Shown: positions 31,227 to 47,487 of the stretch, piece after piece
Position numbering within the stretch: position 1 is the stretch's first letter
How the letters are laid out: the number at the start of each line of letters is the position of its first letter
DNA from: Alphaproteobacteria bacterium
Lineage (GTDB): Bacteria; Pseudomonadota; Alphaproteobacteria; Rhodospirillales; Rhodospirillaceae
Assembly (NCBI GenBank): GCA_016869315.1
Contig: VGEM01000001.1
Span: forward strand, 4,340 to 68,339
Direction: 5' to 3'
DNA: 64,000 nucleotides
Position numbers and translations under genes: made by a program
The notes under the pieces: generated by a model
Database searches by the model: none
Told to the model about the DNA's origin: nothing
The model's input: the letters and a program-made list of their open reading frames with translations, nothing else

Positions 31227-31232
31227 CGATCG

Positions 31233-31832: not shown

Positions 31833-31969
31833 GGGCCGCACAATACGGCAACGTTCACGTGCTGGAAATCGACCATGAAAGGCATGATTTTGACCCCCGT
31901 CACATTTGACGGATGGGTTGAAGGTCATTGATAATGCTGTCGGAACCGCCTTGAGAGGGATTCATCGCC

Positions 31970-33172
31970 ATGCCCGGACGCCAGCTCAGCAACGCCAACC
32001 GGAACTCGACCGAACTCGACATGCACTTGCACCTGACCCACGACGACGGTGTGCGCGCGCGTTTCATGATCGATCTCAAGCGCCGCGTAAACCTCGGCAT
32101 GGGCGCCGAAATCCGCGCCCGGTCGGAAAGCACCCATGAGCCGGCGTTGGCCCGCACGTTGGGCCACCCGCTGTCGGTGAAGAGCAAGACGGATCGCAAG
32201 GCGCTGATCGACGTTCTCGAGCAGACCCACGTTTACAAAGCTTGGGCCTGCATGACCTACATCTCGCAGGGCATGATGTGGGAAATCGTCGACGGCGTGC
32301 TCGACCACGACCTCGATCGTCTGCAGAAGGCCTTCGACTTCTATAAGACGAACCCCAACAAGATCGGCTCATTGAAGCTCAATCCCAATCTCAAGGTGCC
32401 GAAGAACATTCTGAACACCGAGATTCACCGTCAGCCCGGAGGCTTTTGCTACGAAACGCATGCCGACGACATCACCTCGGGTGCGCGCTACAACGGCGGC
32501 GGGCTGATGTACTCGGCCGGGAAAGGTCGCAAACCGGTTGCCGGCAAGTCTGGCGGCGATTGGGTCGCCGAGCAGGTACACAAACTGTATCCCGACTTTG
32601 CGCCAAAAAAGATTCTCGAAATCGGCTGCGGCACCGGCCGCAACACGACGGCCTACCCGAAGGCCTATCCTGGCGCCGAGGTCCATGCGATCGATTGCGC
32701 TGCCGGCCTGCTCCGCTTCGCGCATGCCTACGCCGAATGTAACGGCGCGCCGATTCATTTTGCGCAGATGGATGCGACCGCGCTCGATTATCCCGATGAG
32801 TCCTTCGACATGGTCGTGTCGCACATCCTCGGCCACGAGACGACGCAACGCGGCCTGCCGAAGTGGGTGTCCGAATCCTGGCGCGTGCTGAAGCCGGGCG
32901 GCGTCATGTTCCACCTCGACGTCACCACCCAGCCTGGGTTCCTCAAGCTCGCCGATCTGGTGATGAACGACTGGCAAGTGCGCTTCAACGGCGAGCCGTT
33001 CTGGATGGGTTGGGCCGACGCCGACCTGAAAGCGATCATGCGCGACATCGGCATTCCCGAAGATGCGCTGTTCGCCGAGCACATGGGCACCGGCGGACCG
33101 ATGGGCCAATGGTTCTGCCATGGGGCGCGTAAGCCGAAGACCTGGTCGTCGAAGGTCAAGCGGGCCGCCTAA
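31970..33172 (+). CDS. class I SAM-dependent methyltransferase with long N-terminal extension (cytoplasmic paralogue of 41654 and 43255)
   Basis: Canonical motif I ILEIGCGTG (GCGTG at 32624-32638), post-I AIDCA, and FDMVVSHIL. It shares the upstream NP..(E/T)EIH.QPGG block with the two Tat-signal paralogues. No signal peptide. Start uncertain (31970 or 32021). Confidence 0.8.
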   Translation: MPGRQLSNANRNSTELDMHLHLTHDDGVRARFMIDLKRRVNLGMGAEIRARSESTHEPALARTLGHPLSVKSKTDRKALIDVLEQTHVYKAWACMTYISQGMMWEIVDGVLDHDLDRLQKAFDFYKTNPNKIGSLKLNPNLKVPKNILNTEIHRQPGGFCYETHADDITSGARYNGGGLMYSAGKGRKPVAGKSGGDWVAEQVHKLYPDFAPKKILEIGCGTGRNTTAYPKAYPGAEVHAIDCAAGLLRFAHAYAECNGAPIHFAQMDATALDYPDESFDMVVSHILGHETTQRGLPKWVSESWRVLKPGGVMFHLDVTTQPGFLKLADLVMNDWQVRFNGEPFWMGWADADLKAIMRDIGIPEDALFAEHMGTGGPMGQWFCHGARKPKTWSSKVKRAA

Positions 33173-33183
33173 TCCTTATCATC

Positions 33184-33696
33184 GTGGCGGAGCTCAAGAC
33201 CAAACCCAATTCCGCCAGCGTTACCAGGTTTCTTGCAGGCATTGCCGACAAACACCGGCGCAGCGAAAGTCGTACGCTCGTTAAACTGATGCGTACGGTC
33301 ACTGGCGCAAAGCCTCGCATGTGGGGCGCAAGCATCGTTGGCTTTGGCGAAATTCCGTACCGTTACGCGAGTGGACGCGAAGGAATCTGGTTTGCTGTCG
33401 GCTTTTCACCGCGACGGCACGCGCTGACCATCCACATCATGTCAGGATTCTCGCGCCTGTCCCGGCATCTCAAAGTGCTCGGCAGGTTCAAGACTGGGAA
33501 GTGCTGTCTCTATTTGAAGTGCTGTCTCTATTTAAAGTCCTTGGACGACATCAGCCTGCCTCGTCTGGTGTCTCTGCTGCGCGCATCGCTTGCCGCATTT
33601 CCCAGAAAGCTGCAGCAATTCGTGACGAATACGCATGCTGACGGCAGGAAGCAAGCGTGCGAAACCGGCGTCAAGCGAAGTGCGTCCGGACAGTGA
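33184..33696 (+). CDS. DUF1801 (YdhG-like) domain protein carrying an in-frame 6-codon tandem duplication
   Basis: MAELKTKPNSASVTRFLAGI... and GFSPRRHALTIHI are typical of DUF1801. KCCLYL is duplicated (see repeat 33498-33533). Confidence 0.7.
   Translation: MAELKTKPNSASVTRFLAGIADKHRRSESRTLVKLMRTVTGAKPRMWGASIVGFGEIPYRYASGREGIWFAVGFSPRRHALTIHIMSGFSRLSRHLKVLGRFKTGKCCLYLKCCLYLKSLDDISLPRLVSLLRASLAAFPRKLQQFVTNTHADGRKQACETGVKRSASGQ
33498..33533 (+). repeat. perfect 18-bp tandem duplication inside a CDS
   Basis: GAAGTGCTGTCTCTATTT occurs at 33498-33515 and again at 33516-33533. It is in frame. Confidence 0.95.
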
Positions 33697-33862
33697 CAAG
33701 ACAGGCTACAATCGCACGGCTGGGATGTGGCATGACGGTCAGGACGACGGCTCCGTTGCGACGGACGATGTCGCTACGCGGTTGCGCTTTCCGGGTGGGC
33801 AGCAGCCGGGCTATTCTGCCGTCATTCAGAGCCGGATTGGCCGCCCACCTGGGAGATATCGG

Positions 33863-34464
33863 ATGAACTTCTTGGACAAGATTCGGATCGCCGCCGTTAC
33901 GGTTTGCGCGGGGTTCGCCACTGTCCCGGCCCACGCCGCGCCGGTCGTCCAGACAATCGATTTCGTCGTAAATTTCGGCACCGGACTCTGTCCGCTGGTG
34001 AGCGGGTCGTTCACGTTAAACTAAAACTCCGCCACGCCCACCAGTATCTACGGGCAAGCTGTCACCAGCACCACGTTCTCGACGCCGATCGGCGTGTTTC
34101 CTACGAGCAACGTGTTCTTCGACTTCCGGGTCCCGCCCGACGTCGGGTTCCCCTTGGCGACCCATGAGTTCGACATCTACTTCAATACGCTCGGGGTCTC
34201 GCTGCTGCAGAATTTCGATTTCCTGTTGCGGATTTCCGCGACCGGAACACCGGGCGAGACGTTCGCCGGCTACGGCGCGCAATTCATTTACAGCAATTCC
34301 GGCAATCCGTTTTTTCGAACAGCGTCACCTTGACGACATCGTCCATGCCGGTCGGCGGCGGCAATGGCGTTCCTATCCCCGGTTCCATGGCGATGTTGGG
34401 GTTGGGGCTGTTGGGAGTCGGTGCGGCGCGGCGCGGTAGATTTCGAATACCGCGTCTACGGTGA
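33863..34464 (+). pseudogene. PEP-CTERM sorting-domain protein, disrupted by in-frame TAA and a poly-T frameshift
   Basis: ATG 33863 with signal peptide MNFLDKIRIAAVTVCAGFATVPAHA. TAA at 34022-34024 interrupts the frame, which then continues (NSATPTSIYGQ...FIYSNSGNPFF). After the T6 run at 34310-34315 the -1 frame reads SNSVTLTTSSMPVGGGNGVPIPGSMAMLGLGLLGVGAARRGR, a PEP-CTERM-like anchor ending at TGA 34462-34464. Confidence 0.65.
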
Positions 34465-34577
34465 ACAGCCGATAAGAATCCCTCGCCGAATGGCGGGGTG
34501 AATATTTTGGAACTGTAGAAATTCTCAGTAGACGTGCGGGAGATCGCCCCCGCGTGGTGCGACCGTTCGACCCGTGA

Positions 34578-35633
34578 TCAACCGTAAATTTTGAAGGCGG
34601 TGGTGGCGTTGACCAGGGCCGCGCGAATACCTGGCTCCATCGAGGAATGGCCCGCGTCGGGCACGACGCGATATTGCGCGCCGGGCCAGGACCGCGCCAG
34701 CTGATCGGCGGTGGCGATCGGGCAAACCATGTCGTAGCGGCCTTGGACGATGGTGGCCGGGTGTTTCGCCAACACCGCCATCCCGGCCAAGAGCTGCCCG
34801 GGCGCCATGAAACCCCGGTGCATCATGTAGTGCGCTTCGATCCGCGCCATGGCGAGCGAGCCGGATTGAACTTGTTCGGCGTCGGGCTTGGCGTCGGACT
34901 TGGTTTCGGACTTGGTCTTGGCGCTATGGCTTCGCGATGATGTGGTGAGCGGCACCAGCCGCGAGCAGGCGTTTTCGTAGGCGCACCAGGCTTGGGCGGC
35001 GGGCTCGTGCACCGGTGGCGCCGGGTCGATCAGTCGACGATAGTAAGATCCGAGCGAATCCGAGCGCTCGTTCGGCGGCAGAAACTCGACGAACGCGCGA
35101 TGGGCCTCGGGAAAGATCCGCGCGGCGCCGTGCAAGAACCAATCGACCTCGCCATCGCCGAACAGAAAGATTCCGCGGAGAATGAACGCGACACAGCGTT
35201 CGGGGAACGCCTGGCCATATGCGAGAGCGAGGGTCGAGCCCCACGAACCGCCGAACACCAGCCAGCGTTCGATCTTGAGATGGCGGCGCAGTGCCTCAAT
35301 GTCGGCGATGAGATGGGCGGTGGTGTTGTCGATCACCGATGCTTCGGGCCGCGAGCGTCCCGACCCGCGTTGATCGAACAGGACAATGCGATAATGGCCC
35401 GGATCGAAGAAGCGGCGGTACGCTGGCGCCGTGCCGGCGCCGGGACCGCCATGCAGAAAGAGGATCGGCACACCCTTTGGGTTGCCGCTCTGCTCCCAAT
35501 ACAACAGATGATCGCCATCGACGGCCAGTTTGCCGGTGGCAAACGGCTCCAACGGTGGAAAAAGAGGGAATTCCGCCGTCGGTGCTGGTGTCAGCGTCGA
35601 TCCCGAATGTTCTAGGGCGGCGATGGCCGGCAC
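34578..35633 (-). CDS. pip: prolyl aminopeptidase (proline iminopeptidase, S33)
   Basis: Motifs ILFLHGGPGAG, GGSWGSTLALAYGQAFPE and the C-terminal DAGHS. It contains a Ser/Lys-rich insertion (SRSHSAKTKSETKSDAKPDAEQVQSGS). Confidence 0.9.
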   Translation of the reverse strand: MPAIAALEHSGSTLTPAPTAEFPLFPPLEPFATGKLAVDGDHLLYWEQSGNPKGVPILFLHGGPGAGTAPAYRRFFDPGHYRIVLFDQRGSGRSRPEASVIDNTTAHLIADIEALRRHLKIERWLVFGGSWGSTLALAYGQAFPERCVAFILRGIFLFGDGEVDWFLHGAARIFPEAHRAFVEFLPPNERSDSLGSYYRRLIDPAPPVHEPAAQAWCAYENACSRLVPLTTSSRSHSAKTKSETKSDAKPDAEQVQSGSLAMARIEAHYMMHRGFMAPGQLLAGMAVLAKHPATIVQGRYDMVCPIATADQLARSWPGAQYRVVPDAGHSSMEPGIRAALVNATTAFKIYG

Positions 35634-35798: not shown

Positions 35799-36500
35799 AT
35801 GCTGGAAGCCGTCAACTTGAAAAAAACCTATGGCAACAATGAAGCGCTGAAGGACCTCAATTTATCGATCAAGGCGGGCGATATTTACTGCCTGCTCGGG
35901 GCCAACGGCGCCGGCAAGACGACAACCATCAATCTATTCCTCAACTTCATCGATCCGACCGGCGGGGTCGCCCGGGTTAACGGTCTCGACGTCACCGCGC
36001 ACCCGCTCGAAACCAAGAAGCACCTCGCCTATATCCCCGAGACGGTGATGCTCTACGGAAATCTCAGCGGCCTCGAAAACCTGTCCTATTTCGCGAAACT
36101 CGGCGGGCATTCCGAGTACAGTGACAACGACCTTCGCGATTTTCTGAAGCGCGTCGGGCTGCAGAGCGAGGCTGTGGAGAAAAGGGTCTCCGCGTACTCA
36201 AAAGGCATGCGTCAGAAAGTGGGCGTTGCCATCGCCCTTGCAAAGCGAGCAGGTGCATTGCTTCTCGACGAACCAACCTCGGGCCTCGACCCCAAGGCCA
36301 GCAACGAATTCTCGGAACTGATCAAGCAGCTGCAGGCGGACGGCGCGGCCATTCTGATGGCGACGCACGACCTGTTCCGCGCCAAGGAAACCGGCACCCG
36401 TATCGGCATCATGCGCGAAGGCAAATTGATGCGCGAACTGTCGACGGATGAAGTTTCTCACGCCGACCTCGAGCGTATTTATCTCGAGCACATGCACTAA
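35799..36500 (+). CDS. ABC transporter ATP-binding protein (ABC-2/CcmA-like), no permease gene adjacent
   Basis: Walker A GANGAGKTT, signature YSKGMRQK, Walker B LLLDEPTSGLD, H-loop ATHD. RBS-like GGAGGGG precedes the ATG. Confidence 0.9.
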   Translation: MLEAVNLKKTYGNNEALKDLNLSIKAGDIYCLLGANGAGKTTTINLFLNFIDPTGGVARVNGLDVTAHPLETKKHLAYIPETVMLYGNLSGLENLSYFAKLGGHSEYSDNDLRDFLKRVGLQSEAVEKRVSAYSKGMRQKVGVAIALAKRAGALLLDEPTSGLDPKASNEFSELIKQLQADGAAILMATHDLFRAKETGTRIGIMREGKLMRELSTDEVSHADLERIYLEHMH

Positions 36501-36527
36501 TCGGTACGACCCCAAGGAGACCGCGCC

Positions 36528-38021
36528 ATGAAAGCGTTTATGCGTCTGCTGATCGGTTTGGTTATCCTCGTGGTCATCGCCGGCGCCGGGGGATACGGCG
36601 CCTTCTGGTGGATGAACCGCATTCCACCGCAGCTCAAGGAACCGAACTACCTCACCTATTATAAGACCCAGGACACGACGCCGACCGGCAAGGTCGCGGT
36701 CTTTGTCTCTGGCCTGATCATGCCCGAAAGATTCAGGCTCGAAGACTTCTACAATCTTGCTCTTTAGCCGGCGCAGTACATCCCCTGGCCGATCCGCAAC
36801 TTAGCGATGGCCGACCGCGGCGTGCTGCTGATGGATACCGAGAAGTATTACGAAACCAAGCCTTTCACGCCGACCAGTCTGATGGACGCCTACGGCAACA
36901 CCAACGATGTCGATGGCGTGCCCTATGTGCGGAAATTCCATCGCGGCGAATTGACCTGGGTTGCGCCCGATCCGACCCAGCATGCCGATCACGGTTACTT
37001 TTTGCTGACCGCGCGCAAAGGTGGCATGCCGAACATCGCGCAGAAACTCGCGACCAAGGCCCGCATCTTCTATTACGGCAAGGGCAAGGGTTTCAAAGAT
37101 GGTCGCGTGCCGCACGAAGCCGGCGAGTGGGCGATTATCAAGGGCGCCATGGACAAGCTTGAGGCCAAGTACGGTCCGATCCCCTATCGCTTCGTCAGCG
37201 CCGAGACTCCGGCGATAGCCGAGACATATCTTCGCGAACTCCTCGACGGTGGCGCGGAAACCATCGTGTTCGCGCCGCCGCGGCCGATCTACTCCCAACA
37301 CGAGGAGTTCAACGGCTCGATCAAACACACCATGCATTACATCCATGATTGGGAAAAAGAGCATGGCAAGAAGATCAAAGTGATCATCACGCCGCAGCTT
37401 GGCGACATTCCCGTGATGAAGGAGGCTTTCCTCGTCATGCTGCGCGAACGGCTCGCCACCTTCCCCGAGAACGCCAAGGTCAAGGTCGTCGTTTCGGTCC
37501 GCGGCATGGCCTGGGACAAAGTGCCGCACGAGGGCTGGATCGAGTTGGCGCCACCGTATCGCGACGGCATGGTTCAGGCCGTCAAGGATGAACTCACCAA
37601 ATGGAAATTCGCCAAGACCGAGGTGGTGCAGGCGCAGGACCATTTCGCTGATCCTCACAACAATCCCGACGGCAAGTACCTCTCGACCAACAAGGGATTC
37701 CTCGACGGCGTCAAGGACGGCTTCGATTACGTGGTCAATCTGCCGATCGAGTTCTTCGCCGAGAACACCGACACCATGTTCAGTCACGCCATGTTCAACT
37801 TCGAAGGTTTCCCGGGCTACGACGTCTACGAGACGATCGATTATTCCGACTGGTCGGTGCCCTACACCCGCACCTTCAAGATCGAGAACACCGAGCTGAT
37901 CTATAACGGCCTGCCCGTCGGCAAATACAACGCGCCGATCATCGAGGCTTACGTGCAGGCGATCGATTCGGTGTTGTCGAAGAGCATGAAGCCGAAGAGC
38001 CAGGTGGCGACGGCGGAGTGA
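36528..38021 (+). pseudogene. membrane-anchored ferrochelatase-fold (class II chelatase-like) protein interrupted by one in-frame TAG (otherwise two ORFs: 36528-36767 and 36807-38021)
   Basis: Both ORFs share one frame and are separated only by TAG at 36765-36767. The N-part has a TM helix (LLIGLVILVVIAGAGGYGAFWW). The remainder aligns by eye to B. subtilis HemH blocks: GAETIVFAPPRPIYSQ vs EAVSIVLAPHFSTFS, VVVSVRGMAW vs MLIVSAHSLP, and NLPIEFFAENTDTMFS vs YVPVGFVADHLEVLYD. Confidence 0.6.
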
Positions 38022-38163
38022 AGCGTCAGGGTTCGGCGCCTGTCGGCCCGAGCGATTTCGCGACCTGCTGCACGTCGCTATTCTTGCACCGGGAACCCGC
38101 GCACCGCGCCCTTATCCTGAAATGACGCGGGACTCCGCTCACCGGCACTGGCATGATCGCGTC

Positions 38164-39882
38164 ATGACAATCAAACGACTCTTCGTCCCCATCACTGGCG
38201 CCCAATTGATGGTTCGCCGGGTCGGCGAAGGCCCGCCCGTGGTGTTGATGCACCCGTCGCCGCAGTCGAGCACATTCTCGATTCCGATGGCGAACAAGCT
38301 GGCCGCCGCCGGTTTCACGGCCATTGCCGTCGACACGCCCGGCTACGGCCTGTCCGATCCTCTCGTCGGCGGATACCCGGCAGGTCTCGATCGCGACCAC
38401 GGCCTGGATCCATTTCTGCCGCCGCTGGTGCAACTGCTTGATTCACTCGGGATCGCCAAAGCCGCGTTCTATGGCAATGCCACCGGCGCCGAGGTGGCGC
38501 ACATCTTTGCGTACAATCATCCCGACCGCGCGGCCGTCGCCATGATGGACACCGCCGGGCACAACCCGGACGACGAAGTCGATAAAATCACCGCCGGTTA
38601 TTTTCCCGACGTGACGCCAAGGCGCGACGGCGGCCATCTGCTTACCTACTGGGACATGTGCCACTTCCTCGGCATCTACGCGCCCTGGCAGTTCACCGAT
38701 CACGAACACCGTTTGCAGGTCGATGCCCCCAACCCCGAGCGCACCCAGCGCGTGATGCTGGAATATATGCGCGCCGGCCCCGCCTACCCGACCGCCTATC
38801 GTCCGGCTTTTTATACCGCCAAGGGCCACTTGATCTCGCGGCTCAAGGTGCCGGCCACTCTCACCCGCTGGGAAGGGAAACCAAATCTCGCCGAGATCGA
38901 TGCGTTGATCGCCTACGGCCTGCCGCTCAACATCACCGTGCTTCGCCCCGGTCCCAGCATGGATCAGCGGTTCGATGCCAGCGTCGACTATCTGGTGAAG
39001 AACTATCTCAAGACCGGAACACCCGCGCCGAAACATCCCGACCAAATCGATCGCACGGCCGCACGCCTGCAGAAAGTGTTCATCGATGTGCCCGGCGGCC
39101 AGGTGTTCGCGAGAGTCTGCATGGCGGGACGCGGGCGGCCGATACTCGCCCTGCACGATCCCGCCGGATCGTCGCGGCGGGTCGAATCATTGCTGACGCC
39201 TTACGTCGGCGACCGGCCTGTCATCGCGCTCGATCATCCCTCGAGCGGCGAGTCAGACAAGCTCCTGACCCGCGAGCAGATTTCGACCGAAGCCTACGCC
39301 AAGGCCTCGTGGGTCGCGCTTGATTCGCTAGGCATTAAAGAGATCGACATCATCGGGCGCTACGCCGGCGGCCAGGTCGGTTTGGAAATGGCGCAGCAGC
39401 GGCAGGGCGCGGTGAAGCATATCGTCCACGCCGGGGTGCAGATCTTCACCGATGGCGAGCGGCCCGACTTGCTCGCCAACTACACGCCCTCGATCGCGCC
39501 GACATGGGACGGCCGTCATTTGATGACCGCCTGGGGCATGATGCGCGACATGGCGCTGTTCTGGCCGTGGTACAACCGGACCAAATCGGGGATCGTTCGC
39601 CGTGACGCCGCCATTGACGGCAACACCGTCCATGCCCGGGTCGAGGATTTGCTCAAGATCGGCGACGCGTACCAAAACGCCTACGCCGCCTCGTTCAATT
39701 ACCCGATGGCCGAGCGCCTGAAGGCGAGCACGACCCCCAACCTGATGGCCGACCTGCCGGGCGCCGCAAGCTATTCCCGTGTCGCCATGGCCAAGGCGGC
39801 GGCCCCCAACGTGCAAACGGCCGATTTGCCCGACGACATCCGCGCCTGGCGCGGCGTGTTCGACAAATTCTTCGCGAGCTGA
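38164..39882 (+). CDS. double alpha/beta-hydrolase-fold protein lacking canonical nucleophiles (paralogue 1)
   Basis: Preferred start MTIKRLFVPITGAQL. Domain 1 has VVLMHPSPQSS, AVDTPGYGLSD and elbow G-N-A-T-G (38473-38487; Ala at the nucleophile position). Domain 2 has ILALHDPAGSS and elbow G-R-Y-A-G (Tyr at the nucleophile position). Confidence 0.7.
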   Translation: MTIKRLFVPITGAQLMVRRVGEGPPVVLMHPSPQSSTFSIPMANKLAAAGFTAIAVDTPGYGLSDPLVGGYPAGLDRDHGLDPFLPPLVQLLDSLGIAKAAFYGNATGAEVAHIFAYNHPDRAAVAMMDTAGHNPDDEVDKITAGYFPDVTPRRDGGHLLTYWDMCHFLGIYAPWQFTDHEHRLQVDAPNPERTQRVMLEYMRAGPAYPTAYRPAFYTAKGHLISRLKVPATLTRWEGKPNLAEIDALIAYGLPLNITVLRPGPSMDQRFDASVDYLVKNYLKTGTPAPKHPDQIDRTAARLQKVFIDVPGGQVFARVCMAGRGRPILALHDPAGSSRRVESLLTPYVGDRPVIALDHPSSGESDKLLTREQISTEAYAKASWVALDSLGIKEIDIIGRYAGGQVGLEMAQQRQGAVKHIVHAGVQIFTDGERPDLLANYTPSIAPTWDGRHLMTAWGMMRDMALFWPWYNRTKSGIVRRDAAIDGNTVHARVEDLLKIGDAYQNAYAASFNYPMAERLKASTTPNLMADLPGAASYSRVAMAKAAAPNVQTADLPDDIRAWRGVFDKFFAS

Positions 39883-39884
39883 CC

Positions 39885-41576
39885 ATGCCGGCACCGATCA
39901 CGAAGCATTTTCTGCCGCTGGCCGACGGTCGCCAAATTCACTACCGCCGCGCCGGTTCGGGCCCGCCGCTGATCATCATGCACCCCTCGCCCAATTCGTC
40001 GGCGAGCATGATCAACGCCATCAATGCTTTCTCCGATGCCTTTACGTGCCTCGCCATCGATACGCCGGGCTACGGCATTTCCGACGATTTCGTCGACGAC
40101 CCCGACATGCTGTGGGGCTACGCCGACGCGCTCGCCAAATTTCTCGACGGGCTCGGCATCGAAAAATCCTTCGTCTATGGCGCCGCCACCGGCGCGCAGA
40201 TCGGCATTCAGTTTGCGCGCAAATATCCCGCGCGGATTCACGCGTTTCTGCTGGACGGTAATGGCGATTTCACCGGCGACCTCGACATCGCCCCTGGCTA
40301 TTTCCAGGACGTGACGCCGGTCCGCGACGGTTCGCACCTGATTCGCATCTGGGACATGTGCCGCCAGCTTGGCGTGTTCTTTCCCTGGCAGTCGATGCGT
40401 GGCGCCGACCGTGTCAATACCGATGTCGGCAGCCCCGAAGGCATTCAGCGCGCCGTCAACGACTATCTGCGTGCCGGGCCGGGCTACAAGAAGGGCTACT
40501 ACGAGGCGATGCGGGTCGAGAAGTGGGAGTACACCCGCCAGGTCACCGTGCCGGTATTCATGGCGCGGAACGAATCGAGCGTGCTGTTCAAGTATACCCA
40601 GGCGCTGATCGATAAAGGCCTGCCCGTCAATTTCACCGTTCTCAACTGCGATTCGCGGACGCGCTATCCGATGCAGCTGACGGCGCTCAAGGGCTGGATT
40701 GGCGATCGCACGTTTCCGGCACCGAAGCCGTCACCGGCCGACACGTCGGCGACATCGCGCATGCAAAACATGTACGTCAAAGCCCGCGGCGGTTTCCTCA
40801 GGGCGCGCGCCAACCTGACCGGCAAAGGCCGGCCGATCGTTGCGTTGCATGATCCGGCCGGATCGTCGCTGCTGGTCGAGCCCATGCTGGTCCCATGGAT
40901 CGGCAAGCGTCCGGTGATCGCGCTCGATCTGCCCGGCAATGGCGAGTCCGACAACGTCATCGAGCCGGCCAACATCACCTCGGCGGCTTACGCCGCGATT
41001 GTGAACGACGCGCTGGCTGGCGCCGGCATCGACCAGTCCGATGTCATCGGGCGCTATTCGGGCGGTCCCGTCGCGATGGAGATGAGTTTCGCAAAACCGT
41101 CGCTGGTCAAACATCTGGCGCTTTCGGGGATTGGAGCCTACGAAGCTGCCGAGCAGAAGACGCTCCTCGACAATTACACGCCATCAGTCGCGCCCGTGTG
41201 GGACGGCAGCCATCTTGCGACCGCATGGGCGATGATGCGCGACCAGGGTCTCTACTGGCCGTGGTTCAATCGAACCCGCGGCGGGATTGTGCCGTCGGCC
41301 AACGGCATCGACGTTGCGACCATTCATCTTCGCGTCACCGAACTTCTCAAGGTCGGCGACCAATATCAAAAAGCCTATGCCGCCATGTGGACCTACCCGA
41401 TGCGCGAGCGCCTCCCCAAGGTGGCGGCGCCGACACTGGTCTGCATGCCGGCGTGGGACCCGATCTACGCCAAGATGGCCGAATGCAAAGCCTTCGCGCC
41501 GAAAGTCGGCACCGCCGATTTGCCCGCGAAAATGGCCGATTGGCATGCGGTCATTGACCCCTTCTTCGCGACCTGA
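39885..41576 (+). CDS. double alpha/beta-hydrolase-fold protein lacking canonical nucleophiles (paralogue 2)
   Basis: Starts 2 bp after paralogue 1. It has LIIMHPSPNSS, AIDTPGYGISD and elbow G-A-A-T-G (40179-40193). Domain 2 has IVALHDPAGSS and G-R-Y-S-G. By eye it is about 45-50 percent identical to paralogue 1. Confidence 0.7.
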   Translation: MPAPITKHFLPLADGRQIHYRRAGSGPPLIIMHPSPNSSASMINAINAFSDAFTCLAIDTPGYGISDDFVDDPDMLWGYADALAKFLDGLGIEKSFVYGAATGAQIGIQFARKYPARIHAFLLDGNGDFTGDLDIAPGYFQDVTPVRDGSHLIRIWDMCRQLGVFFPWQSMRGADRVNTDVGSPEGIQRAVNDYLRAGPGYKKGYYEAMRVEKWEYTRQVTVPVFMARNESSVLFKYTQALIDKGLPVNFTVLNCDSRTRYPMQLTALKGWIGDRTFPAPKPSPADTSATSRMQNMYVKARGGFLRARANLTGKGRPIVALHDPAGSSLLVEPMLVPWIGKRPVIALDLPGNGESDNVIEPANITSAAYAAIVNDALAGAGIDQSDVIGRYSGGPVAMEMSFAKPSLVKHLALSGIGAYEAAEQKTLLDNYTPSVAPVWDGSHLATAWAMMRDQGLYWPWFNRTRGGIVPSANGIDVATIHLRVTELLKVGDQYQKAYAAMWTYPMRERLPKVAAPTLVCMPAWDPIYAKMAECKAFAPKVGTADLPAKMADWHAVIDPFFAT

Positions 41577-41653
41577 CGCGTTCACGGCGCGAACGGATTG
41601 GCAGCTCGAAATCGTGCTAAGCTGGCGTCTCTGTCCGGCCTGGGGAGGCGTTC

Positions 41654-42862
41654 ATGAGCAAGGTGTTCAGTCGTCGATCGATCATGAATGCCATCGGCGG
41701 GACCGCCGCCGCTGCTGGCTTTTTCAGACCCGGCACAGCCGTCGCCAAACTGAAGAAAGATATCGAGCCCCGAGGCAGCAACGGCACCCTTGAACGATTG
41801 CCGACCCTCGATCTCGACAGCTACGACGATTTCAGTACGGCGACGCGGATCTGGATCAACGGCGATCTGACGCGCGCCTCGGAACAACGCGCCGCCGAGA
41901 TTCTGAAATCCCACGGCGTCAAACCGACCGACAAAGTTTCCTTCGAGGACACCGTGCGTTGGGTAGCCGACGATCCGATCATCGCCCTGCGCAGCGCCAG
42001 CTGGCAGCGGTTGCAATGGCATATGTGGCAAGAGCTGCGCCGCGAATTCCACGGCAACTTCGACGCCTACATGTCGGAACTGGAAGCAGCCGACGCTTCG
42101 GGCCCGGGCGTGCTCGAACTCAACCCCGGCATCGAGCCCGAGTACACCAAGCACGAAATCCACATGCAGCCGGGCGGCTACACCGGCGACCCTTTCGCAG
42201 GGCACCTGTATCACTACGGCACCAACAATTTTTACAACGGCACCAATCATCAGGATCAGCGCCACACCGCGCTGGCCGGCGCGGTTCCGGTGCCGGCCGA
42301 CGGCAAAGTGCGCCGCATCCTCGATATGGGCTGCAGCTGCGGCCAGCAGGTGACGGCGCTGAAGCAACGCTTCCCCGATGCCGAAGTGTGGGGCATCGAT
42401 ATCGGCGCGCCGATGGTGCGCTACGCCCACATGCGGGCGGTCGATCTTGGCATCGACGTCAACTTCCGCCACGCGCTGGCCGAGCAAACCGGGTTCCCCG
42501 ACGGCCACTTCGACATGGTCACCTCATATATCCTGCACCACGAGGTGACCGCGGCGGCGAGCCTGCAAATCGTCAAGGAAGCGCATCGCATTTTGCGGCC
42601 TGGCGGCGTGTTCTATCCGGTCGACATATATCCATCGCCGACCAACCGCTCCGACCACGGCACCGCCATTCGCCATGTTCGCGATTGGATGACCCATCGC
42701 TGGAATCATGAGCGGTGGTGGAATGACTATCTCACCACCGATTACATCGGCGAGATCGCGCGGGTTGGATTCACGTTGCAAGACGCCGCCCGGGAAGGCG
42801 TTGGCTATCCCATGGTTGCCCCCGGAGGGCCAAGAAATCCCCTTGGCATCAAGCCGGTCTAA
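41654..42862 (+). CDS. Tat-signal-bearing class I methyltransferase-fold protein with degenerate motif I
   Basis: N-terminus MSKVFSRRSIMNAIGGTAAAAGFFRPGTAVA|KLKKD has an RR motif, an h-region and an AxA site. The MTase core is RILDMGCSCGQQ (GCSCG at 42329-42343), GIDIGAPMV and FDMVTSYILHH. RBS-like GGGGAGG lies upstream. Confidence 0.7.
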   Translation: MSKVFSRRSIMNAIGGTAAAAGFFRPGTAVAKLKKDIEPRGSNGTLERLPTLDLDSYDDFSTATRIWINGDLTRASEQRAAEILKSHGVKPTDKVSFEDTVRWVADDPIIALRSASWQRLQWHMWQELRREFHGNFDAYMSELEAADASGPGVLELNPGIEPEYTKHEIHMQPGGYTGDPFAGHLYHYGTNNFYNGTNHQDQRHTALAGAVPVPADGKVRRILDMGCSCGQQVTALKQRFPDAEVWGIDIGAPMVRYAHMRAVDLGIDVNFRHALAEQTGFPDGHFDMVTSYILHHEVTAAASLQIVKEAHRILRPGGVFYPVDIYPSPTNRSDHGTAIRHVRDWMTHRWNHERWWNDYLTTDYIGEIARVGFTLQDAAREGVGYPMVAPGGPRNPLGIKPV

Positions 42863-42901
42863 TCACGTTTTTGTTGGTTCATCACGCAACAGGAGGAAGG
42901 C

Positions 42902-43243
42902 ATGGCAGAAACCAAAGGCAATCGGCCGACGTACGCGACCGATTTTATCACGACCGACATCGAGAAAGTGACGTTCTTCGGCAACGTTCACATCGACAAT
43001 ATGATGACGACGCTGCTCGCCATGGGTAACGAGCTCTGGGTTCAGCGGAAGCGTCAGCACATTCTGGAAGCGCTGCTGGCCGAAAAGGGCGTCAAGCCCG
43101 AGGCCATCGAGAAGTACGTGGCGACGCCGGCGCAGGAGCAGGCCTGGGCCAAGGAGCGCGACGTCCTGGTCGCCCGGCTGTGGAGCCACCACGACAAGAA
43201 CACCGGCGAATACAATTTCGCCTCCGACTGGAACGGAAAGTAA
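42902..43243 (+). CDS. hypothetical 113-aa cytoplasmic protein between the two Tat-signal paralogues
   Basis: ORF with an AGGAGGAAGG RBS-like element upstream. No signal peptide or known motif recognised (MAETKGNRPTYATDFITTDIEKVTFFGNVHIDNMM...). Confidence 0.5.
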   Translation: MAETKGNRPTYATDFITTDIEKVTFFGNVHIDNMMTTLLAMGNELWVQRKRQHILEALLAEKGVKPEAIEKYVATPAQEQAWAKERDVLVARLWSHHDKNTGEYNFASDWNGK

Positions 43244-43254
43244 GGAGCACGACC

Positions 43255-44520
43255 ATGAGCCAACTGTTCAATCGACGCTCGATGATGGGTATGGCCGGCG
43301 GCGCGCTGAGCGCGGCTTCGGTCCTCAGCTCGAGCCACGCCCACGCCAAGCTCAAGAACGATTTCGAACCGCGCGGCGGCGACGGCATCTGGGAACGCCT
43401 GCCCTCGCTCAATCTCGAGGCCTACGACGAAATGTCGACCTCGACCCGGAAATGGGTCAATGGCGCCTTGGCCCGCGCCGCGCAGCAGCGCGCCAACGAG
43501 CTGATGGTCAAGAACGGCATGAAGCCGGACCAGCAGATCAGCTTCGAGGACGCATCCAAACTGTTGTCGAACGACCCGATCATCGCCATGCGCGCATCAA
43601 GCTGGCAGCGGCTGCAGTGGCACATGTGGCAAGAACTGAAGCGCGAGTTCTACGACAACTACGACGCCTACATGTCGGAAATGGAAGCGACCGATAAAAC
43701 CGGCCCCGGCACGCTCGAGCTCAATCCCGGCATCGAGCCCGAGTACACCAAGCACGAGATCCACATGCAGCCGGGCGGCTACACCGGCGATCCGTTCGCC
43801 GGACACCTTTATCTCTATGGCACCGCCAACTTCTACGTCGGCCAGAACTATCAGGACCAGGGCCACGCGGCGCTCGCCGCGGCGGTGCCGGTGCCGGCCG
43901 ACGGAAAAGTGCGGCGCATTCTCGATGCCGGCTGCAGCTGCGGTCAACAGGTGGTGGCGTTGAAGCGCCGGTTCCCCGATGCCGAGGTATGGGGCGTCGA
44001 CATTGGCGCGCCGATGGTGCGATACGCGCATATGCGCGCCGTCGACAACGGCGTCGATGTCAATTTCCGTCACGCTTTGGCCGAAAAAACCGGCTTCCCC
44101 GACGGCTACTTCGACATCGTCACCAGCTACATCCTGCATCACGAAGTGACCGAGCAGGCGACCTACGAGATCATCCGCGAGACCTCGCGGGTCCTGCGTC
44201 CGGGCGGCGTTTACTTCCCGGTCGACGTCTACACGATGCCGTCGCGCCGCGTGCTCGACGGCACGCCGATGCGCCGCATCCAGGACTGGATCACGTCGCG
44301 CTGGAACCACGAGCGGTGGTGGTACGACTACCAGCGCTCCGACTTCCTCGGCGAAATGCAGCGCTCGGGCTTCGCGCTCAACATGGATGGTCCCGAGGCC
44401 TCGGCCTATGCCGTCAATCTGTCGCAGGCCCGCGCCAGACAAACCTCGGGTCGCCCGCAGGCTTTGGGCGACATGTCGGGTCAGGGTGGCCAAAAGAACA
44501 TCATGGGCACGAAGATCTGA
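43255..44520 (+). CDS. Tat-signal-bearing class I methyltransferase-fold protein with degenerate motif I (tandem paralogue)
   Basis: Start MSQLFNRRSMMGMAGGALSAASVLSSSHAHA|KLKND with AAGGAG 8 nt upstream. The core is about 70-80 percent identical by eye to 41654-42862. RILDAGCSCGQQ has GCSCG at 43930-43944. Confidence 0.7.
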   Translation: MSQLFNRRSMMGMAGGALSAASVLSSSHAHAKLKNDFEPRGGDGIWERLPSLNLEAYDEMSTSTRKWVNGALARAAQQRANELMVKNGMKPDQQISFEDASKLLSNDPIIAMRASSWQRLQWHMWQELKREFYDNYDAYMSEMEATDKTGPGTLELNPGIEPEYTKHEIHMQPGGYTGDPFAGHLYLYGTANFYVGQNYQDQGHAALAAAVPVPADGKVRRILDAGCSCGQQVVALKRRFPDAEVWGVDIGAPMVRYAHMRAVDNGVDVNFRHALAEKTGFPDGYFDIVTSYILHHEVTEQATYEIIRETSRVLRPGGVYFPVDVYTMPSRRVLDGTPMRRIQDWITSRWNHERWWYDYQRSDFLGEMQRSGFALNMDGPEASAYAVNLSQARARQTSGRPQALGDMSGQGGQKNIMGTKI

Positions 44521-44541
44521 TTCTTCGCCTCTTCAGGATCA

Positions 44542-44575
44542 GGGCCTCACCTGCGGGTGGGGCCCTTTTTCTTTT
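44542..44575 (+). terminator. rho-independent terminator of the 35.8-44.5 kb cluster
   Basis: GGGCCTCACC-TGCG-GGTGGGGCCC (9 of 10 bp pair), followed by TTTTTCTTTT. It lies 21 bp after the stop at 44520. Confidence 0.75.
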
Positions 44576-44694
44576 GATTTTCTTGCGTTTCCCGCGGGTT
44601 TCGGCGCCTTGACGGGCGCCCGATCGAACGCCACATAAGTGGAGCCCACGCCGCTGCCGGGTGGGCCATTTTGTCTCGCTCGTCGAGGGGACCC

Positions 44695-45162
44695 ATGACC
44701 CGCGTATCCGTGTTCTCGAGCCCGCTGTTGCTCGGCTTCGACCATATCGAGCGCGTGCTCGACCGTGTCGCCAAGACCGGCGCTGAGGGCTACCCGCCCT
44801 ACAACATCGAGCAGACCGGCGAGCATCGCCTGCGGATCACGCTGGCGGTCGCCGGATTCGCCGATGAAGACCTTGGTGTCGCGATCGAGGACAACCAGCT
44901 GGTCATCCGCGGCAAGCAGCAGGATGACAGCTCCAATCGCGTCTACCTTCACCGTGGGATCGCCGCCCGTCAGTTCACGCGCAGCTTCGTGCTGGCCGAA
45001 GGAATCGAAGTGCGCGGCGCCGAACTGGTGAACGGTCTGTTGCACATCGACCTCGAACGACCGGTGCCCCAGCCCAAGGTCACCCAGATCCAGATCAAAT
45101 CGAGCGCGCCGAAAAAGAAGCCCACCAAGACCATTGATGTCGAGCCGGATCATCTTAAATAA
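44695..45162 (+). CDS. Hsp20/alpha-crystallin family small heat-shock protein
   Basis: Start MTRVSVFSSPLLLGFDHIERVLD with GAGGGGA upstream. The alpha-crystallin core is YPPYNIEQTGEHRLRITLAVAGF...GLLHIDLER. Confidence 0.9.
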   Translation: MTRVSVFSSPLLLGFDHIERVLDRVAKTGAEGYPPYNIEQTGEHRLRITLAVAGFADEDLGVAIEDNQLVIRGKQQDDSSNRVYLHRGIAARQFTRSFVLAEGIEVRGAELVNGLLHIDLERPVPQPKVTQIQIKSSAPKKKPTKTIDVEPDHLK

Positions 45163-45408: not shown

Positions 45409-45852
45409 AACCCGTTTTCATTGTCACTGACCGATCCACTAACTCAGGGTCACCCCGGACTTGATCCCTTAGGCGCTAAGAAAAGCATGACTTTTGCAGT
45501 ATCCCGAAGATAATCACACCATACGCGTCGTCGACGGCGCGATCCGCGGCAAGACGGATCAGTTCGTCTACAAGTTCCGGAAGCCGAAGTAAGCGGCCCT
45601 GACGGACGAGGACCCTTAACCGCCGGATAACGGCGTCACCCCGGCCGCCGAGCTGCCTTCGCGCGTTGCGCTTCGGCGGACGCAGACTGAAACCCACCGA
45701 GGCCAATTGGCGTAGGCGGGGCCGGGGTCCCTGGGGAGGCGTACACCGACGTCACGACTTTGACGCCCGTTCTGGCTGCTGCGGGCCCACCCAGGACTGC
45801 ACCGATTTCACAGATGCGCGCCGATTTGGTAAACCATGGCGGGCGCACCAAG

Positions 45853-45928
45853 TCCCTGTAGCTCAGCTGGATAGAGCACCAGATTCCTAATCTGGGGGTC
45901 GTGAGTTCAAATCTCGCCGGGGACGCCA
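45853..45928 (+). tRNA. tRNA-Arg (anticodon CCT)
   Basis: 76-nt cloverleaf. Acceptor stem GTCCCTG/CGGGGAC (one G-U pair). D arm GCTC...GAGC. Anticodon stem CCAGA/TCTGG with loop TTCCTAA. T arm GTGAG-TTCAAAT-CTCGC. Discriminator G and an encoded CCA. Confidence 0.95.
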
Positions 45929-46554: not shown

Positions 46555-47487
46555 ATGGCCGTTTTTAGAGAACTCACCGAGCCCGCCCACCTGCACGACT
46601 ATCTCGGCGCGGCCCACGATACGAACGCGCGCCGGACACGGTGGGTCGTCGCATTAACCGCCGTCATGATGGTCGGAGAGATCGTTGCAGGTTACCTCAC
46701 GGGCTCCATGGCGCTTCTGGCGGACGGGTTCCATATGGCTACGCACGCTGGTGCCCTCACCGTCGCAGCGTTCGCCTATGCCTATGCGAAACGGTATGCC
46801 CATGACCCGCGCTTCACCTTCGGTACCGGCAAAGTCGGTGAGCTTGCCGGTTTTGCTTCCGCCTTTGCGCTGGCTTTGATCGCGATAGGCATCGGCGTCG
46901 TGTCAGCGATCCGGTTGGCCCGGCCGATCCCCGTGAATTTCAGCGATGCCACCCTGATTGCTGTACTCGGCTTGATAGTCAATCTTGTCAGCGCCGCTTT
47001 GCTCGCTGGTGGGGGTCACCATCACGGCCACGCTCATCATAAACACCATGATTGGGCCGGACATGACCATGGCGGTCACGGACATGACAATAATCTGCGC
47101 GCCGCCTACGTTCATGTTCTCGCCGACGCGCTCACCTCCGTACTCGCGATAATCGGGTTGCTGGCGGGGCGATACCTTGGCTGGGTTTGGCTCGATCCAT
47201 TGATGGGTATGGTCGCCGCCGCCGTCATCGGGCGCTGGTCTTGGGGCCTCATGGGCGATACCGCCCGCGTGCTGCTGGACACCGCCGATCCGCACTTATT
47301 CGAAGAAGTGCTGGAGTGCGTGGAGAAGCCCGGCGATGCCCGCGTTGTTGATCTCCATGTTTGGCAGGTTGGGCCTCAAGCTCATGCTGCTAGTGTTGTC
47401 GTGCGCGGGCCAATTGATGCAGAAGCCGTTCGCGACCGCCTTAAGCCCGTTCATGAAATCAAGCATCTGACCGCCGAGGTGGCTTGA
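46555..47487 (+). CDS. dmeF: cation diffusion facilitator family Co/Ni (Zn/Cd) efflux transporter, DmeF-like
   Basis: 310-aa ORF with 6 TM segments and the LLADGFHMATHAGAL and HVLADALTSV motifs. It has the His-rich loop GGGHHHGHAHHKHHDWAGHDHGGHGHD and a C-terminal cytoplasmic domain. Confidence 0.85.
   Translation: MAVFRELTEPAHLHDYLGAAHDTNARRTRWVVALTAVMMVGEIVAGYLTGSMALLADGFHMATHAGALTVAAFAYAYAKRYAHDPRFTFGTGKVGELAGFASAFALALIAIGIGVVSAIRLARPIPVNFSDATLIAVLGLIVNLVSAALLAGGGHHHGHAHHKHHDWAGHDHGGHGHDNNLRAAYVHVLADALTSVLAIIGLLAGRYLGWVWLDPLMGMVAAAVIGRWSWGLMGDTARVLLDTADPHLFEEVLECVEKPGDARVVDLHVWQVGPQAHAASVVVRGPIDAEAVRDRLKPVHEIKHLTAEVA

Follow-up and report, generated by a model that had tools for sequence, protein, structure and literature searches.

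In this study, we have explored a cluster of seven genes on the + strand (35799 to 44520) of a 64,000-nucleotide stretch of DNA, hereafter the window, from an alphaproteobacterium of the family Rhodospirillaceae (assembly GCA_016869315.1, contig VGEM01000001.1). A first-pass annotation had proposed that these genes constitute a single undescribed system of catalytically non-canonical enzymes. Our investigations demonstrate that the locus, posed in this way, is a chance juxtaposition with a dead gene at its centre; its gene families are undescribed, and they are neither one system nor non-canonical by design. We propose instead that the locus is made of two unrelated modules, adjacent in this lineage only, that a chelatase-like gene in the first of them is dead, and that in intact relatives this module would handle metal outside the cytoplasm. 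Taken as a whole, mechanism included, we give this explanation a probability of about 0.6; we hold its structural and evolutionary part to be very likely and its mechanism to be tentative. The first module (35799 to 41576) would be the decayed version of an operon that is conserved among uncultured Rhodospirillaceae, with the ancestral order of an ABC-2 ATPase, two DUF3526 permeases, a single-pass membrane protein and one or two cytoplasmic proteins with a double alpha/beta-hydrolase fold. The permeases would be ancestral, lost several times and absent here, and the chelatase-like gene would have been lost in this genome while the ATPase and both double alpha/beta genes (abh1 and abh2) still look constrained. 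The second module (41654 to 44520) would be a pair of methyltransferases exported through twin-arginine translocation (Tat), the second preceded by a 113-aa partner, inserted before a heat-shock gene.

Results

Decay of the chelatase-like gene

The open reading frame (ORF) at 36528 to 38021 (+ strand) corresponds to a homologue of class II chelatases, with the ferrochelatase fold, a membrane anchor and a predicted periplasmic orientation. It is not open: codon 80 is an in-frame TAG (36765 to 36767) in place of a lysine codon, Lys80 being invariant in all 55 homologues of our alignment (A3), and the nonsense change would be AAG to TAG if the lysine was encoded by AAG. The annotation of seven open co-directional genes thus stands for six ORFs and for the coordinates, and fails for this interrupted one. 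Two more codons depart from positions invariant in the 55 homologues, with CAA (Gln) at His257 (37296 to 37298) and CGC (Arg) at His325 (37500 to 37502), the histidine of the S-x-H-G motif, where the window protein reads VSVRGMAW. Of 77 invariant columns, the window copy is therefore changed at three (K80stop, H257Q and H325R), and each of the eight closest homologues, left out in turn as a control, is changed at none. A Logan assembly of run ERR14822406 (L013), 99.69% identical to the window (17 mismatches in 5420 bp), carries the identical TAG and the identical Arg325, and its codon 257 is still CAC (His). From this we infer that the stop is real, that the lesions arose stepwise and that H257Q is younger than the split from L013. 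Taken together, these changes mark the ORF as a decaying pseudogene, and the gene as dead in this genome.

A sequencing error as the source of the TAG was ruled out by its presence in this independent assembly. Reassignment of the stop, for example to pyrrolysine, was also ruled out: TAG closes 5 of the 37 ORFs in the window and is thus an ordinary stop here, no suppressor or other extra tRNA was found in the window, and two invariant histidines are lost as well. The Arg reported by the first-pass annotation in place of the chelatase His is there as described. Since His325 is invariant among the homologues, it would reflect decay of this copy rather than a trait of the family. In two other loci (L091, 10001 to 11402; L092, 5094 to 6393), the chelatase-like gene is recovered as two overlapping tblastn segments, which suggests frameshifts, either in genes that are disrupted as well or through faulty assembly.

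Synteny of the operon in related genomes

The neighbourhood of the chelatase-like gene was inspected by hand in ten loci and compared by tblastn in 79 loci returned by a scan that kept one genome per species; all 79 come from metagenome-assembled genomes (MAGs). In 20 of the 79, the ATPase gene, the chelatase-like gene and, downstream of it, one or two double alpha/beta genes are adjacent. An ABC-2 ATPase gene lies upstream of the chelatase-like gene in 27 loci, 11 of these with permeases, and one further contig retains permeases alone. The alphaproteobacterial order begins, in some loci, with a gene for an RND-type membrane fusion protein (MFP) on the opposite strand, and continues with NicO (forward), DUF1007 (reverse), a methyltransferase gene that we call mt0 (forward), pip (reverse), a major facilitator superfamily (MFS) transporter gene (forward) and, where present, TetR (reverse). 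The operon follows, all forward: the ATPase, the two permeases where present, the chelatase-like gene, abh1 where present, abh2 and then HSP20. TetR and the Tet(A)-like MFS gene stand just upstream of the operon in many loci.

In Gammaproteobacteria, the company of the chelatase-like gene is different. In 18 loci it is followed by genes for an MFP, an ATPase and two FtsX permeases, all in the same direction, and 17 of these 18 also have, upstream, a gene for a membrane-anchored hydrolase with a canonical Ser; in one of them (L003) this hydrolase gene overlaps the chelatase start. A divergent pip-like gene adjoins the chelatase-like gene in six loci. These counts show that the core synteny of the chelatase-like gene with ABC exporters is conserved.

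The same survey separates the rest of the cluster from this core. A Tat-methyltransferase gene lies within 4 kb of the chelatase-like gene in none of the 79 loci, and the same is true of the 113-aa ORF (orf113), so the claim that the seven genes form one system fails, and a shared neighbourhood in related genomes is borne out only for the ATPase, chelatase-like and double alpha/beta genes. In the 20 loci with the latter, the next homologue detected past the last of them is HSP20, where the contig reaches that far; two of the 20 carry another gene in between. In the window, HSP20 (an IbpA-like small heat-shock gene, 44695 to 45162, + strand) comes after the cluster and its terminator. Because relatives show HSP20 as the next homologue after abh2, the stretch from 41577 to 44540 (mt1, orf113 and mt2) reads as a lineage-specific insertion between abh2 and HSP20. 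Apart from the mt1/mt2 duplication itself, no flanking repeats or mobile-element scars were found around it. The spacer between abh2 and HSP20 varies in length among the relatives and at times holds other inserted genes. It appears as a repeated insertion site, with a gene for a PEP-CTERM protein in L007 and L017 and about 870 bp in L015.

As for the layout of the cluster, the gaps between its ORFs are, in order, 27, 142, 2, 77, 39 and 11 bp, in agreement with the range of 2 to 142 bp first given, and the GGAGG-like sites (AGGAG or GGAGG) reported before several starts are also seen. The single strong terminator placed after the cluster is likewise confirmed (44541 to 44576, + strand): its stem (44541 to 44566) has 11 pairs, 8 of them G-C, and TTTTTCTTTTG, the T tract, comes next.

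The ABC ATPase and its missing permeases

The first gene of the cluster (35799 to 36500, + strand) encodes an ABC-2/DrrA-like ATPase with 93.6 bits to PF00005 and 184.9 bits to TIGR01188 (drrA), the latter under the cut-off. Its translation shows GANGAGKTT, YSKGMRQK, LLLDEPTSGLD and ATHD (Walker A, signature, Walker B and H-loop). No other gene of the locus is as well conserved: it is 79-93% identical to the alphaproteobacterial and 73-75% to the gammaproteobacterial orthologues beside the chelatase-like gene, and at 137 invariant columns it has a single, conservative change, which is within the leave-one-out range. As the first-pass annotation had it, no cognate permease stands alongside, the gap that separates the ATPase from the chelatase-like gene being just 27 bp. 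That position is taken by two DUF3526 permeases, a family on which we found no literature, in 11 loci of the 79 and also in L001, L006 and L010. In 16 loci, by contrast, the ATPase directly precedes the chelatase-like gene, as it does in the window (L014, L015, L017, L018, L023-L033 and L091 are permease-less loci of this kind). In a neighbour-joining tree, made without bootstrap, the permease-bearing state looks ancestral, with three or more losses. We also observed that abh1, the second double alpha/beta gene, is nearly anticorrelated with the permease pair (L001, L010, L016, L019 and L020 compared with L007, L015, L017, L018 and L023-L033), both being present in L082 alone; either a clade effect or a functional replacement could account for this.

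Fold, active site and topology of the chelatase-like family

The chelatase-like family comprises 408 database matches of about 497 aa, and those with a named source are MAGs of Rhodospirillaceae and Gammaproteobacteria. An AlphaFold2 (AF2) model of an intact homologue (P0002, 89% identical; pLDDT 93.4, pTM 0.90) was compared with the Protein Data Bank (PDB) using Foldseek and matched human, yeast and Bacillus subtilis ferrochelatase (E 1e-9 to 1e-6); for the human and B. subtilis enzymes, E was 1e-9 and TM(target) 0.65-0.69 at about 12% identity. Weaker matches were to SirB, to periplasmic CbiK and to FetB, the last two at ranks 48-49 with TM of about 0.53-0.55, and to an ABC solute-binding protein at rank 46. 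As modelled, the family has the two-domain class II chelatase fold. The first-pass call of a membrane-anchored ferrochelatase-fold protein thus holds for the fold, through this model of a homologue, and not for the window gene, which is not intact. Sequence searches are less telling. The window protein scores 16.7 bits to PF00762, under the Pfam cut-off of 27; precomputed annotation gives a PF00762 match in a minority of homologues; and a PDB sequence search, with the family profile (A1) or a single sequence, returned no ferrochelatase or other match. With hhalign, a 28-residue stretch alone could be aligned to Escherichia coli HemH, at low probability, and this alignment places H257 and H258 within the LPLYPQFS loop of ferrochelatase.

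The catalytic, metal-binding His of ferrochelatase (H183 in B. subtilis, H194 in E. coli) lies in an S-x-H-G motif, and its candidate counterpart, His325, is His in 55 of 55 members of the family. This correspondence was made by eye, by setting the family motif VVVSVHGM beside LLLSYHGI around H194 of HemH; in the same way, FFAENTDTM would match FAADCLETL, which puts the invariant Asp415 at the Glu position and an Asn at the His position. The presumed catalytic His, an SHHE motif and a cluster of E, N, D, T and H residues are invariant across the 55 sequences, which are about 55-90% identical. On these grounds the family seems to keep a chelatase-like active site. The charge is +3.7 before the N-terminal helix and a net +1.2 after it, and 44 of 53 family members are free of Cys, compared with a mean of 4.7 Cys in the double alpha/beta family. 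Because of this flank charge bias and the near-absence of Cys, the protein is predicted to span the membrane once, N-in/C-out, with its chelatase domain in the periplasm. Tandem duplicates of the gene were also seen (L035, 8361 to 11446; L055, 8538 to 11485; L067; L074), and most of the MAGs carrying them are gammaproteobacterial.

The double alpha/beta-fold proteins

The genes abh1 (38164 to 39882, + strand) and abh2 (39885 to 41576, + strand), the latter closing the ancestral operon, encode paralogues that are 44% identical, and two PF00561 stretches were found in each (E 2.6e-17 and 2.2e-18), in line with the two double-fold proteins annotated at first. Abh1 is predicted to be cytoplasmic, and no signal peptide is visible in it. 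The Ala or Tyr reported at the nucleophile positions is confirmed: the N-terminal elbows read GNATG in abh1 and GAATG in abh2, and the C-terminal ones GRYAG and GRYSG. In alignment A4, the nucleophile position is Ala or His in the N-terminal domain and Tyr or Trp in the C-terminal domain in all but two of 26 members, and these two also have no Ser, Cys or Asp nucleophile. The lack of a nucleophile in both domains thus appears as a property of the whole family, with elbow consensuses of Y-G-x-[A/H]-T-G-A and G-R-[Y/W]-x-G-G. The claim that every enzyme-like member of the cluster departs from the signature of its fold holds, as a family trait, for these proteins, and not for the chelatase-like protein or the methyltransferases. 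Thirty-six columns are invariant, including DTPGYG-SD, DG-HL---W and F-PW motifs in both halves, and neither abh1 nor abh2 is an outlier in the leave-one-out comparison. The family (190 database matches) shares a contig with the chelatase-like gene in all 20 surveyed loci that have it, and in these alphaproteobacterial loci the linkage is tight, with gaps of tens of bases. Many database matches of the two families also agree in the length of their longest contig.

A more distant relative, abh3 (47683 to 48585, + strand), is a secreted single-domain protein, 26-30% identical to the halves of abh2. Together with mt0 (31970 to 33172, + strand), it bears out the earlier mention of distant paralogues at 47683 and 31970. 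Abh3 has a signal peptide and a His at the nucleophile position (GFHTG), an elbow also seen in the N-terminal domains of two distant family members (P0338 and P0340), and its gene adjoins a CDF cation-efflux gene (46555 to 47487).

The Tat-methyltransferases and orf113

The two methyltransferase genes, mt1 (41654 to 42862, + strand) and mt2 (43255 to 44520, + strand), are tandem paralogues with 63% amino-acid identity, and each product has the class I S-adenosylmethionine (SAM)-dependent methyltransferase fold (PF13649, 74.3 bits for mt1 and 76.4 bits for mt2). Their N-termini contain SRRSIM and NRRSMM, followed by an Ala/Gly-rich stretch and A-x-A-K; across 23 homologues, conservation of the RR motif is 90% or more, and an AxA cleavage site comes after it. 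Both proteins are predicted to be exported by the Tat pathway, as first annotated. Motif I indeed reads GCSCG in both, as was reported, and this is one of several variants in the family (GCSCG, GCGTG, GCGCG, GCGVG, GCSVG, GCSIG or GTSCG), in which the first and last Gly are invariant and the change of the central Gly to Ser is a polymorphism. Because motif I varies in this way within the family, GCSCG is not a signature of lost function; the acidic and PGG motifs of methyltransferases are retained. A HMMER profile match to the PDB delimits a methyltransferase core of about 110-120 residues (E 4e-14), and Foldseek with an AF2 model extends over about 200 columns (E 1e-9), to generic class I methyltransferases alone. 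A helical N-terminal domain of about 170 aa, with an invariant HEIH-QPGG, matches nothing. The named equivalogs CpaM, UbiE/MenG, ArsM and BioC are all far under their cut-offs, the best NCBIfam score being that of CpaM, 46.7 against 180; UbiE, for example, has 39.6 against 158. The product of mt0 is about 30% identical to mt1 and mt2 and shares the EIH-QPGG N-terminal domain; it is a cytoplasmic paralogue with the canonical GCGTG and no signal peptide.

In other genomes, the Tat-methyltransferase genes occur in unrelated contexts, alone or with orf113 homologues, and in several paralogous copies per genome (five on one 2.16-Mb contig); the family has at least five paralogues per genome in marine and freshwater Rhodospirillaceae. 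The 113-aa ORF between mt1 and mt2 (42902 to 43243, + strand) encodes a small protein predicted to be cytoplasmic. With a G+C of 0.83 at third codon positions (GC3) in frame and with homologues elsewhere, it is a real gene. In L011, two Tat-methyltransferase genes are directly preceded by orf113 homologues (55% and 42% identity), and in metagenome loci with enough downstream DNA, a Tat-methyltransferase gene comes next on the same strand in 13 of 13. Orf113 is thus a dedicated upstream partner of Tat-methyltransferase genes. Its family has 151 cluster representatives, mostly of 95-135 aa; orf113 itself matches nothing in Pfam at E<=0.01, and nine homologues searched at E<=5 did not agree on any weak family. 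Two further cases were set aside. The orf113 and methyltransferase genes on a chelatase contig (L041) are 7 kb apart and were treated as chance. A 494-aa protein (P0404), in which an orf113 homologue is joined to a Tat-methyltransferase by an Arg/Ala/Pro-rich linker with an internal Tat signal, was rejected as a true fusion; the linker reads like a translated spacer and the Tat signal is internal, which points to read-through or a missed stop. P0404 again shows the adjacency of the two genes.

By Pfam, the cluster yields ABC_tran, two Abhydrolase_1 matches per double protein, and Methyltransf_25/11 in both methyltransferases, and none of its seven proteins reaches an NCBIfam equivalog cut-off. 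We found no relevant literature on periplasmic methyltransferases, on Tat-signal class I SAM-dependent methyltransferases or on ferrochelatase-like periplasmic proteins. The combination was rightly called undescribed, as judged by NCBIfam cut-offs, the PDB profile search, Pfam for orf113 and this literature.

Flanking features of the window

The G+C of the window is about 62%. A scan for promoters gave matches no commoner than in shuffled sequence, and Rfam, over the 64 kb, found a tRNA-Arg alone and no riboswitch or other known RNA regulator. This tRNA-Arg(CCT) (45852 to 45928) is called by both ARAGORN and Rfam. ARAGORN also calls an 80-nt tRNA-Asp on the minus strand (16081 to 16160), below the Rfam gathering threshold and within a long ORF of high GC3 (15754 to 17247); it is probably a false positive. 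By eye, an element like CTTGAC...CCCAAAATA, similar to a heat-shock (sigma-32 type) promoter, recurs in the spacer between the terminator and HSP20 (44580 to 44694) and in those between abh2 and HSP20 in L014-L031. Divergent from the ATPase gene is a gene for a prolyl aminopeptidase with a canonical GGSWG elbow (34578 to 35633, - strand; TIGR01249, 337.9 bits against a cut-off of 259.75). It is separated from mt0 by 1.4 kb (33173 to 34577), a distance of only about 270 bp in L026. This interval holds an ORF of 170 aa with no Pfam match (33184 to 33696), possibly another damaged gene, in which an 18-bp tandem duplication (33498 to 33538) repeats KCCLYL in the product. Further upstream, the order of NicO, DUF1007 and mt0 (30012 to 33172, with DUF1007 reversed) is kept beside the operon in the window and in about 15 related loci, and the NicO-family transporter gene contains 15-bp and 12-bp tandem repeats (30735 to 30842).

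Discussion

For the first module, our best guess is that it handles metal outside the cytoplasm and couples this to efflux by an ABC transporter, a function that this genome would have lost at least in part. In relatives with an intact gene, the chelatase homologue would put a metal into, or take it out of, an amphipathic, tetrapyrrole-like ligand associated with the membrane, on the outer side of the inner membrane, and the associated ABC exporter (of ABC-2/DUF3526 type, or of MacB/DevCA type with an MFP) would expel the ligand or the product; in this genome, the metal-ligand step would be lost. Large periplasmic domains are a feature of both types of exporter seen beside the gene. Several points weigh against this proposal. 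That the substrate is tetrapyrrole-like is a guess for which the fold is the sole basis, and the periplasmic orientation is predicted from charge bias and Cys depletion. Twenty-five of the 79 loci have none of these partner genes, and the contexts sampled among them are diverse (a luciferase-like monooxygenase, DUF1838, NmrA and others). A simple exporter model does not explain why 16 genomes keep the ATPase without permeases. The alpha/beta partners in Alpha- and Gammaproteobacteria are not orthologous, and therefore a hydrolase with a chelatase may not be one conserved theme. Furthermore, every genome found is a MAG, the members are known from genes alone, and the two modules may be co-transcribed here, as no strong terminator was found between abh2 and mt1.

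For the second module, orf113 would probably act in the cytoplasm on the Tat-methyltransferase before its export, as a chaperone or an activating subunit. One possible reading, which we hold to be doubtful, joins the two as a periplasmic methylation system, in which the methyltransferases would be loaded or assembled in the cytoplasm with the help of orf113 and exported folded via Tat, and in which their substrate, located in the envelope or outside the cell, would be a small molecule, a metal(loid) or a component of the envelope. If true, this reading would place methyltransferase chemistry in a compartment not known to hold its cofactor.

Four other explanations were weighed against these results. 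The chelatase-like gene could still be functional, with the TAG read through or suppressed, or with a restart at the ATG at 36807 giving a soluble protein of 404 aa. The TAG is kept stably in two populations about 0.3% apart, the frame downstream of it is open for 417 codons with a GC3 of 0.81, and 404 aa is the product that gene callers report. Nevertheless, two more substitutions strike histidines invariant in 55 homologues, one of them presumed catalytic, TAG is a normal stop in a window with no suppressor tRNA, and the remnant would lack both the membrane helix and the beta-alpha units that open domain 1 (in the model, strand 56-62 and helix 71-84); we find a functional gene distinctly improbable. 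The family could, alternatively, be a tethered biosynthetic chelatase facing the cytoplasm, serving as another HemH/CpfC/SirB for the cell's own tetrapyrroles, and some ferrochelatases are indeed membrane-associated, the best structural matches here being biosynthetic ferrochelatases. We give this hardly any credence: the charge bias and near-absence of Cys favour an external domain, the neighbours are exporters rather than tetrapyrrole biosynthesis genes, identity to ferrochelatases is 12%, with the window copy at 16.7 against 27 bits, and the gene is dispensable in this lineage.

A single co-evolved system of non-canonical enzymes would account for seven co-directional genes with short gaps and one strong terminator at their end, and no member has a characterised homologue. 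It could also appeal to mt0, a cytoplasmic member of the methyltransferase family whose gene keeps its place near the operon in about 15 related genomes, and to the predicted periplasmic location shared by the Tat-methyltransferases and the chelatase domain. The synteny survey largely refutes it. The Tat-methyltransferases are absent from within 4 kb of the chelatase-like gene in all 79 genomes and are scattered as several paralogues per genome in unrelated contexts, HSP20 is the next homologue detected after abh2 in the relatives that bear the operon, the chelatase-like member is a pseudogene, and neither the change of His to Arg nor GCSCG is a family trait; the one-system view has very little chance of being right. 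Finally, the core could be a TetR-controlled efflux or detoxification locus (MFS and ABC), with the chelatase-fold protein as a non-enzymatic ligand binder and the alpha/beta proteins as passengers. The TetR and Tet(A)-like MFS genes upstream and the weak Foldseek match to an ABC solute-binding protein are consistent with this, and the nearest extracytoplasmic relatives, periplasmic CbiK and FetB, were originally described as haem-binding proteins (PMC13065792). We consider it unlikely, as the invariant His, SHHE motif and E/N/D/T/H cluster over 55 sequences typify an active site more than a binding pocket, and as the double alpha/beta genes are tightly linked in 20 of 20 alphaproteobacterial loci.

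Under the two-module explanation, the non-canonical chelatase residue and the permease-less ATPase are products of gene decay and of a lineage-specific insertion, not of a designed system. What the locus does reveal is three uncharacterised and well-conserved families, found so far only in uncultured Alpha- and Gammaproteobacteria. The first has a ferrochelatase fold and a membrane anchor, is predicted to face the periplasm and recurs in linkage with ABC exporters. Should it exchange the metals of tetrapyrroles outside the cytoplasm, it would extend the few known cases, CbiK(P) and FetB, to abundant aquatic bacteria, and would bear on the cycling of haem, porphyrins and metals. The second is a tandem alpha/beta-fold family which is strongly conserved, yet has no nucleophile in either domain. 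The third, the predicted Tat-exported methyltransferases with their small partner, leads one to ask in what way an enzyme that uses SAM could function in the periplasm. In addition, an orphan ATPase kept after the apparently repeated loss of its permeases is a small puzzle for transporter biology.

Comparison with known systems

Each of these families has partial counterparts among described proteins. With HemH/CpfC (PF00762), the chelatase-like family shares the two-domain fold, the S-x-H-G histidine and an LP-x-YP-like loop. The key distinctions are an identity of about 12%, some 180 extra residues, the N-terminal membrane helix and the predicted periplasmic domain; furthermore, in the motif comparison by eye, an invariant Asp stands for the Glu of DxLET and an Asn for the His next to it, and the window copy is a pseudogene that falls under the Pfam cut-off. 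Closer in location are Desulfovibrio vulgaris CbiK(P) and Porphyromonas gingivalis FetB, which have a class II chelatase fold outside the cytoplasm, as is predicted here. FetB inserts Mn or Co into porphyrin and is needed for the production of Mn-protoporphyrin IX (Mn-PPIX), and serves as a precedent for an extracytoplasmic class II chelatase acting on porphyrins (PMC13065792). Unlike the single-pass anchored chelatase-like family, CbiK(P) and FetB are secreted or lipoproteins, are about half its size, and have their links with uptake systems, not with ABC exporters.

The exporters themselves fall into familiar groups. MacAB-TolC, DevBCA and LolCDE are ABC exporters with large periplasmic domains, and NosFY and DrrAB are of ABC-2 type. 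Beside the chelatase-like gene, we found either an ABC-2 ATPase with two ABC2_membrane/DUF3526 permeases or a MacAB/DevBCA-like set of an MFP, an ATPase and two FtsX/MacB_PCD permeases. The difference is that, in the window and 15 of the surveyed species genomes, the ATPase is kept without adjacent permeases. The double alpha/beta proteins recall the inactive alpha/beta-hydrolase folds of NDRG/Ndr, in which the nucleophile is also replaced, and precomputed annotation gives PF03096 for many members, as a 'weak' match where it is graded; unlike Ndr, the family has two domains in tandem, with conserved motifs of its own in both halves.

With class I methyltransferases, of which CysG of Kitasatospora cystarginea, Rv2258c and the phosphoethanolamine N-methyltransferases are the nearest structures, the mt family shares its Rossmann-type core, and it differs from them by the twin-arginine signal, the helical N-terminal domain and the dedicated small partner gene. 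A small gene beside that of a Tat substrate or a methyltransferase is a known arrangement, in the Tat chaperones TorD/DmsD and NapD and in activators such as Trm112. Orf113 resembles these in being small, predicted to be cytoplasmic and encoded immediately upstream, a likeness of gene order alone, and it differs from them in having no detectable sequence similarity to any Pfam family.

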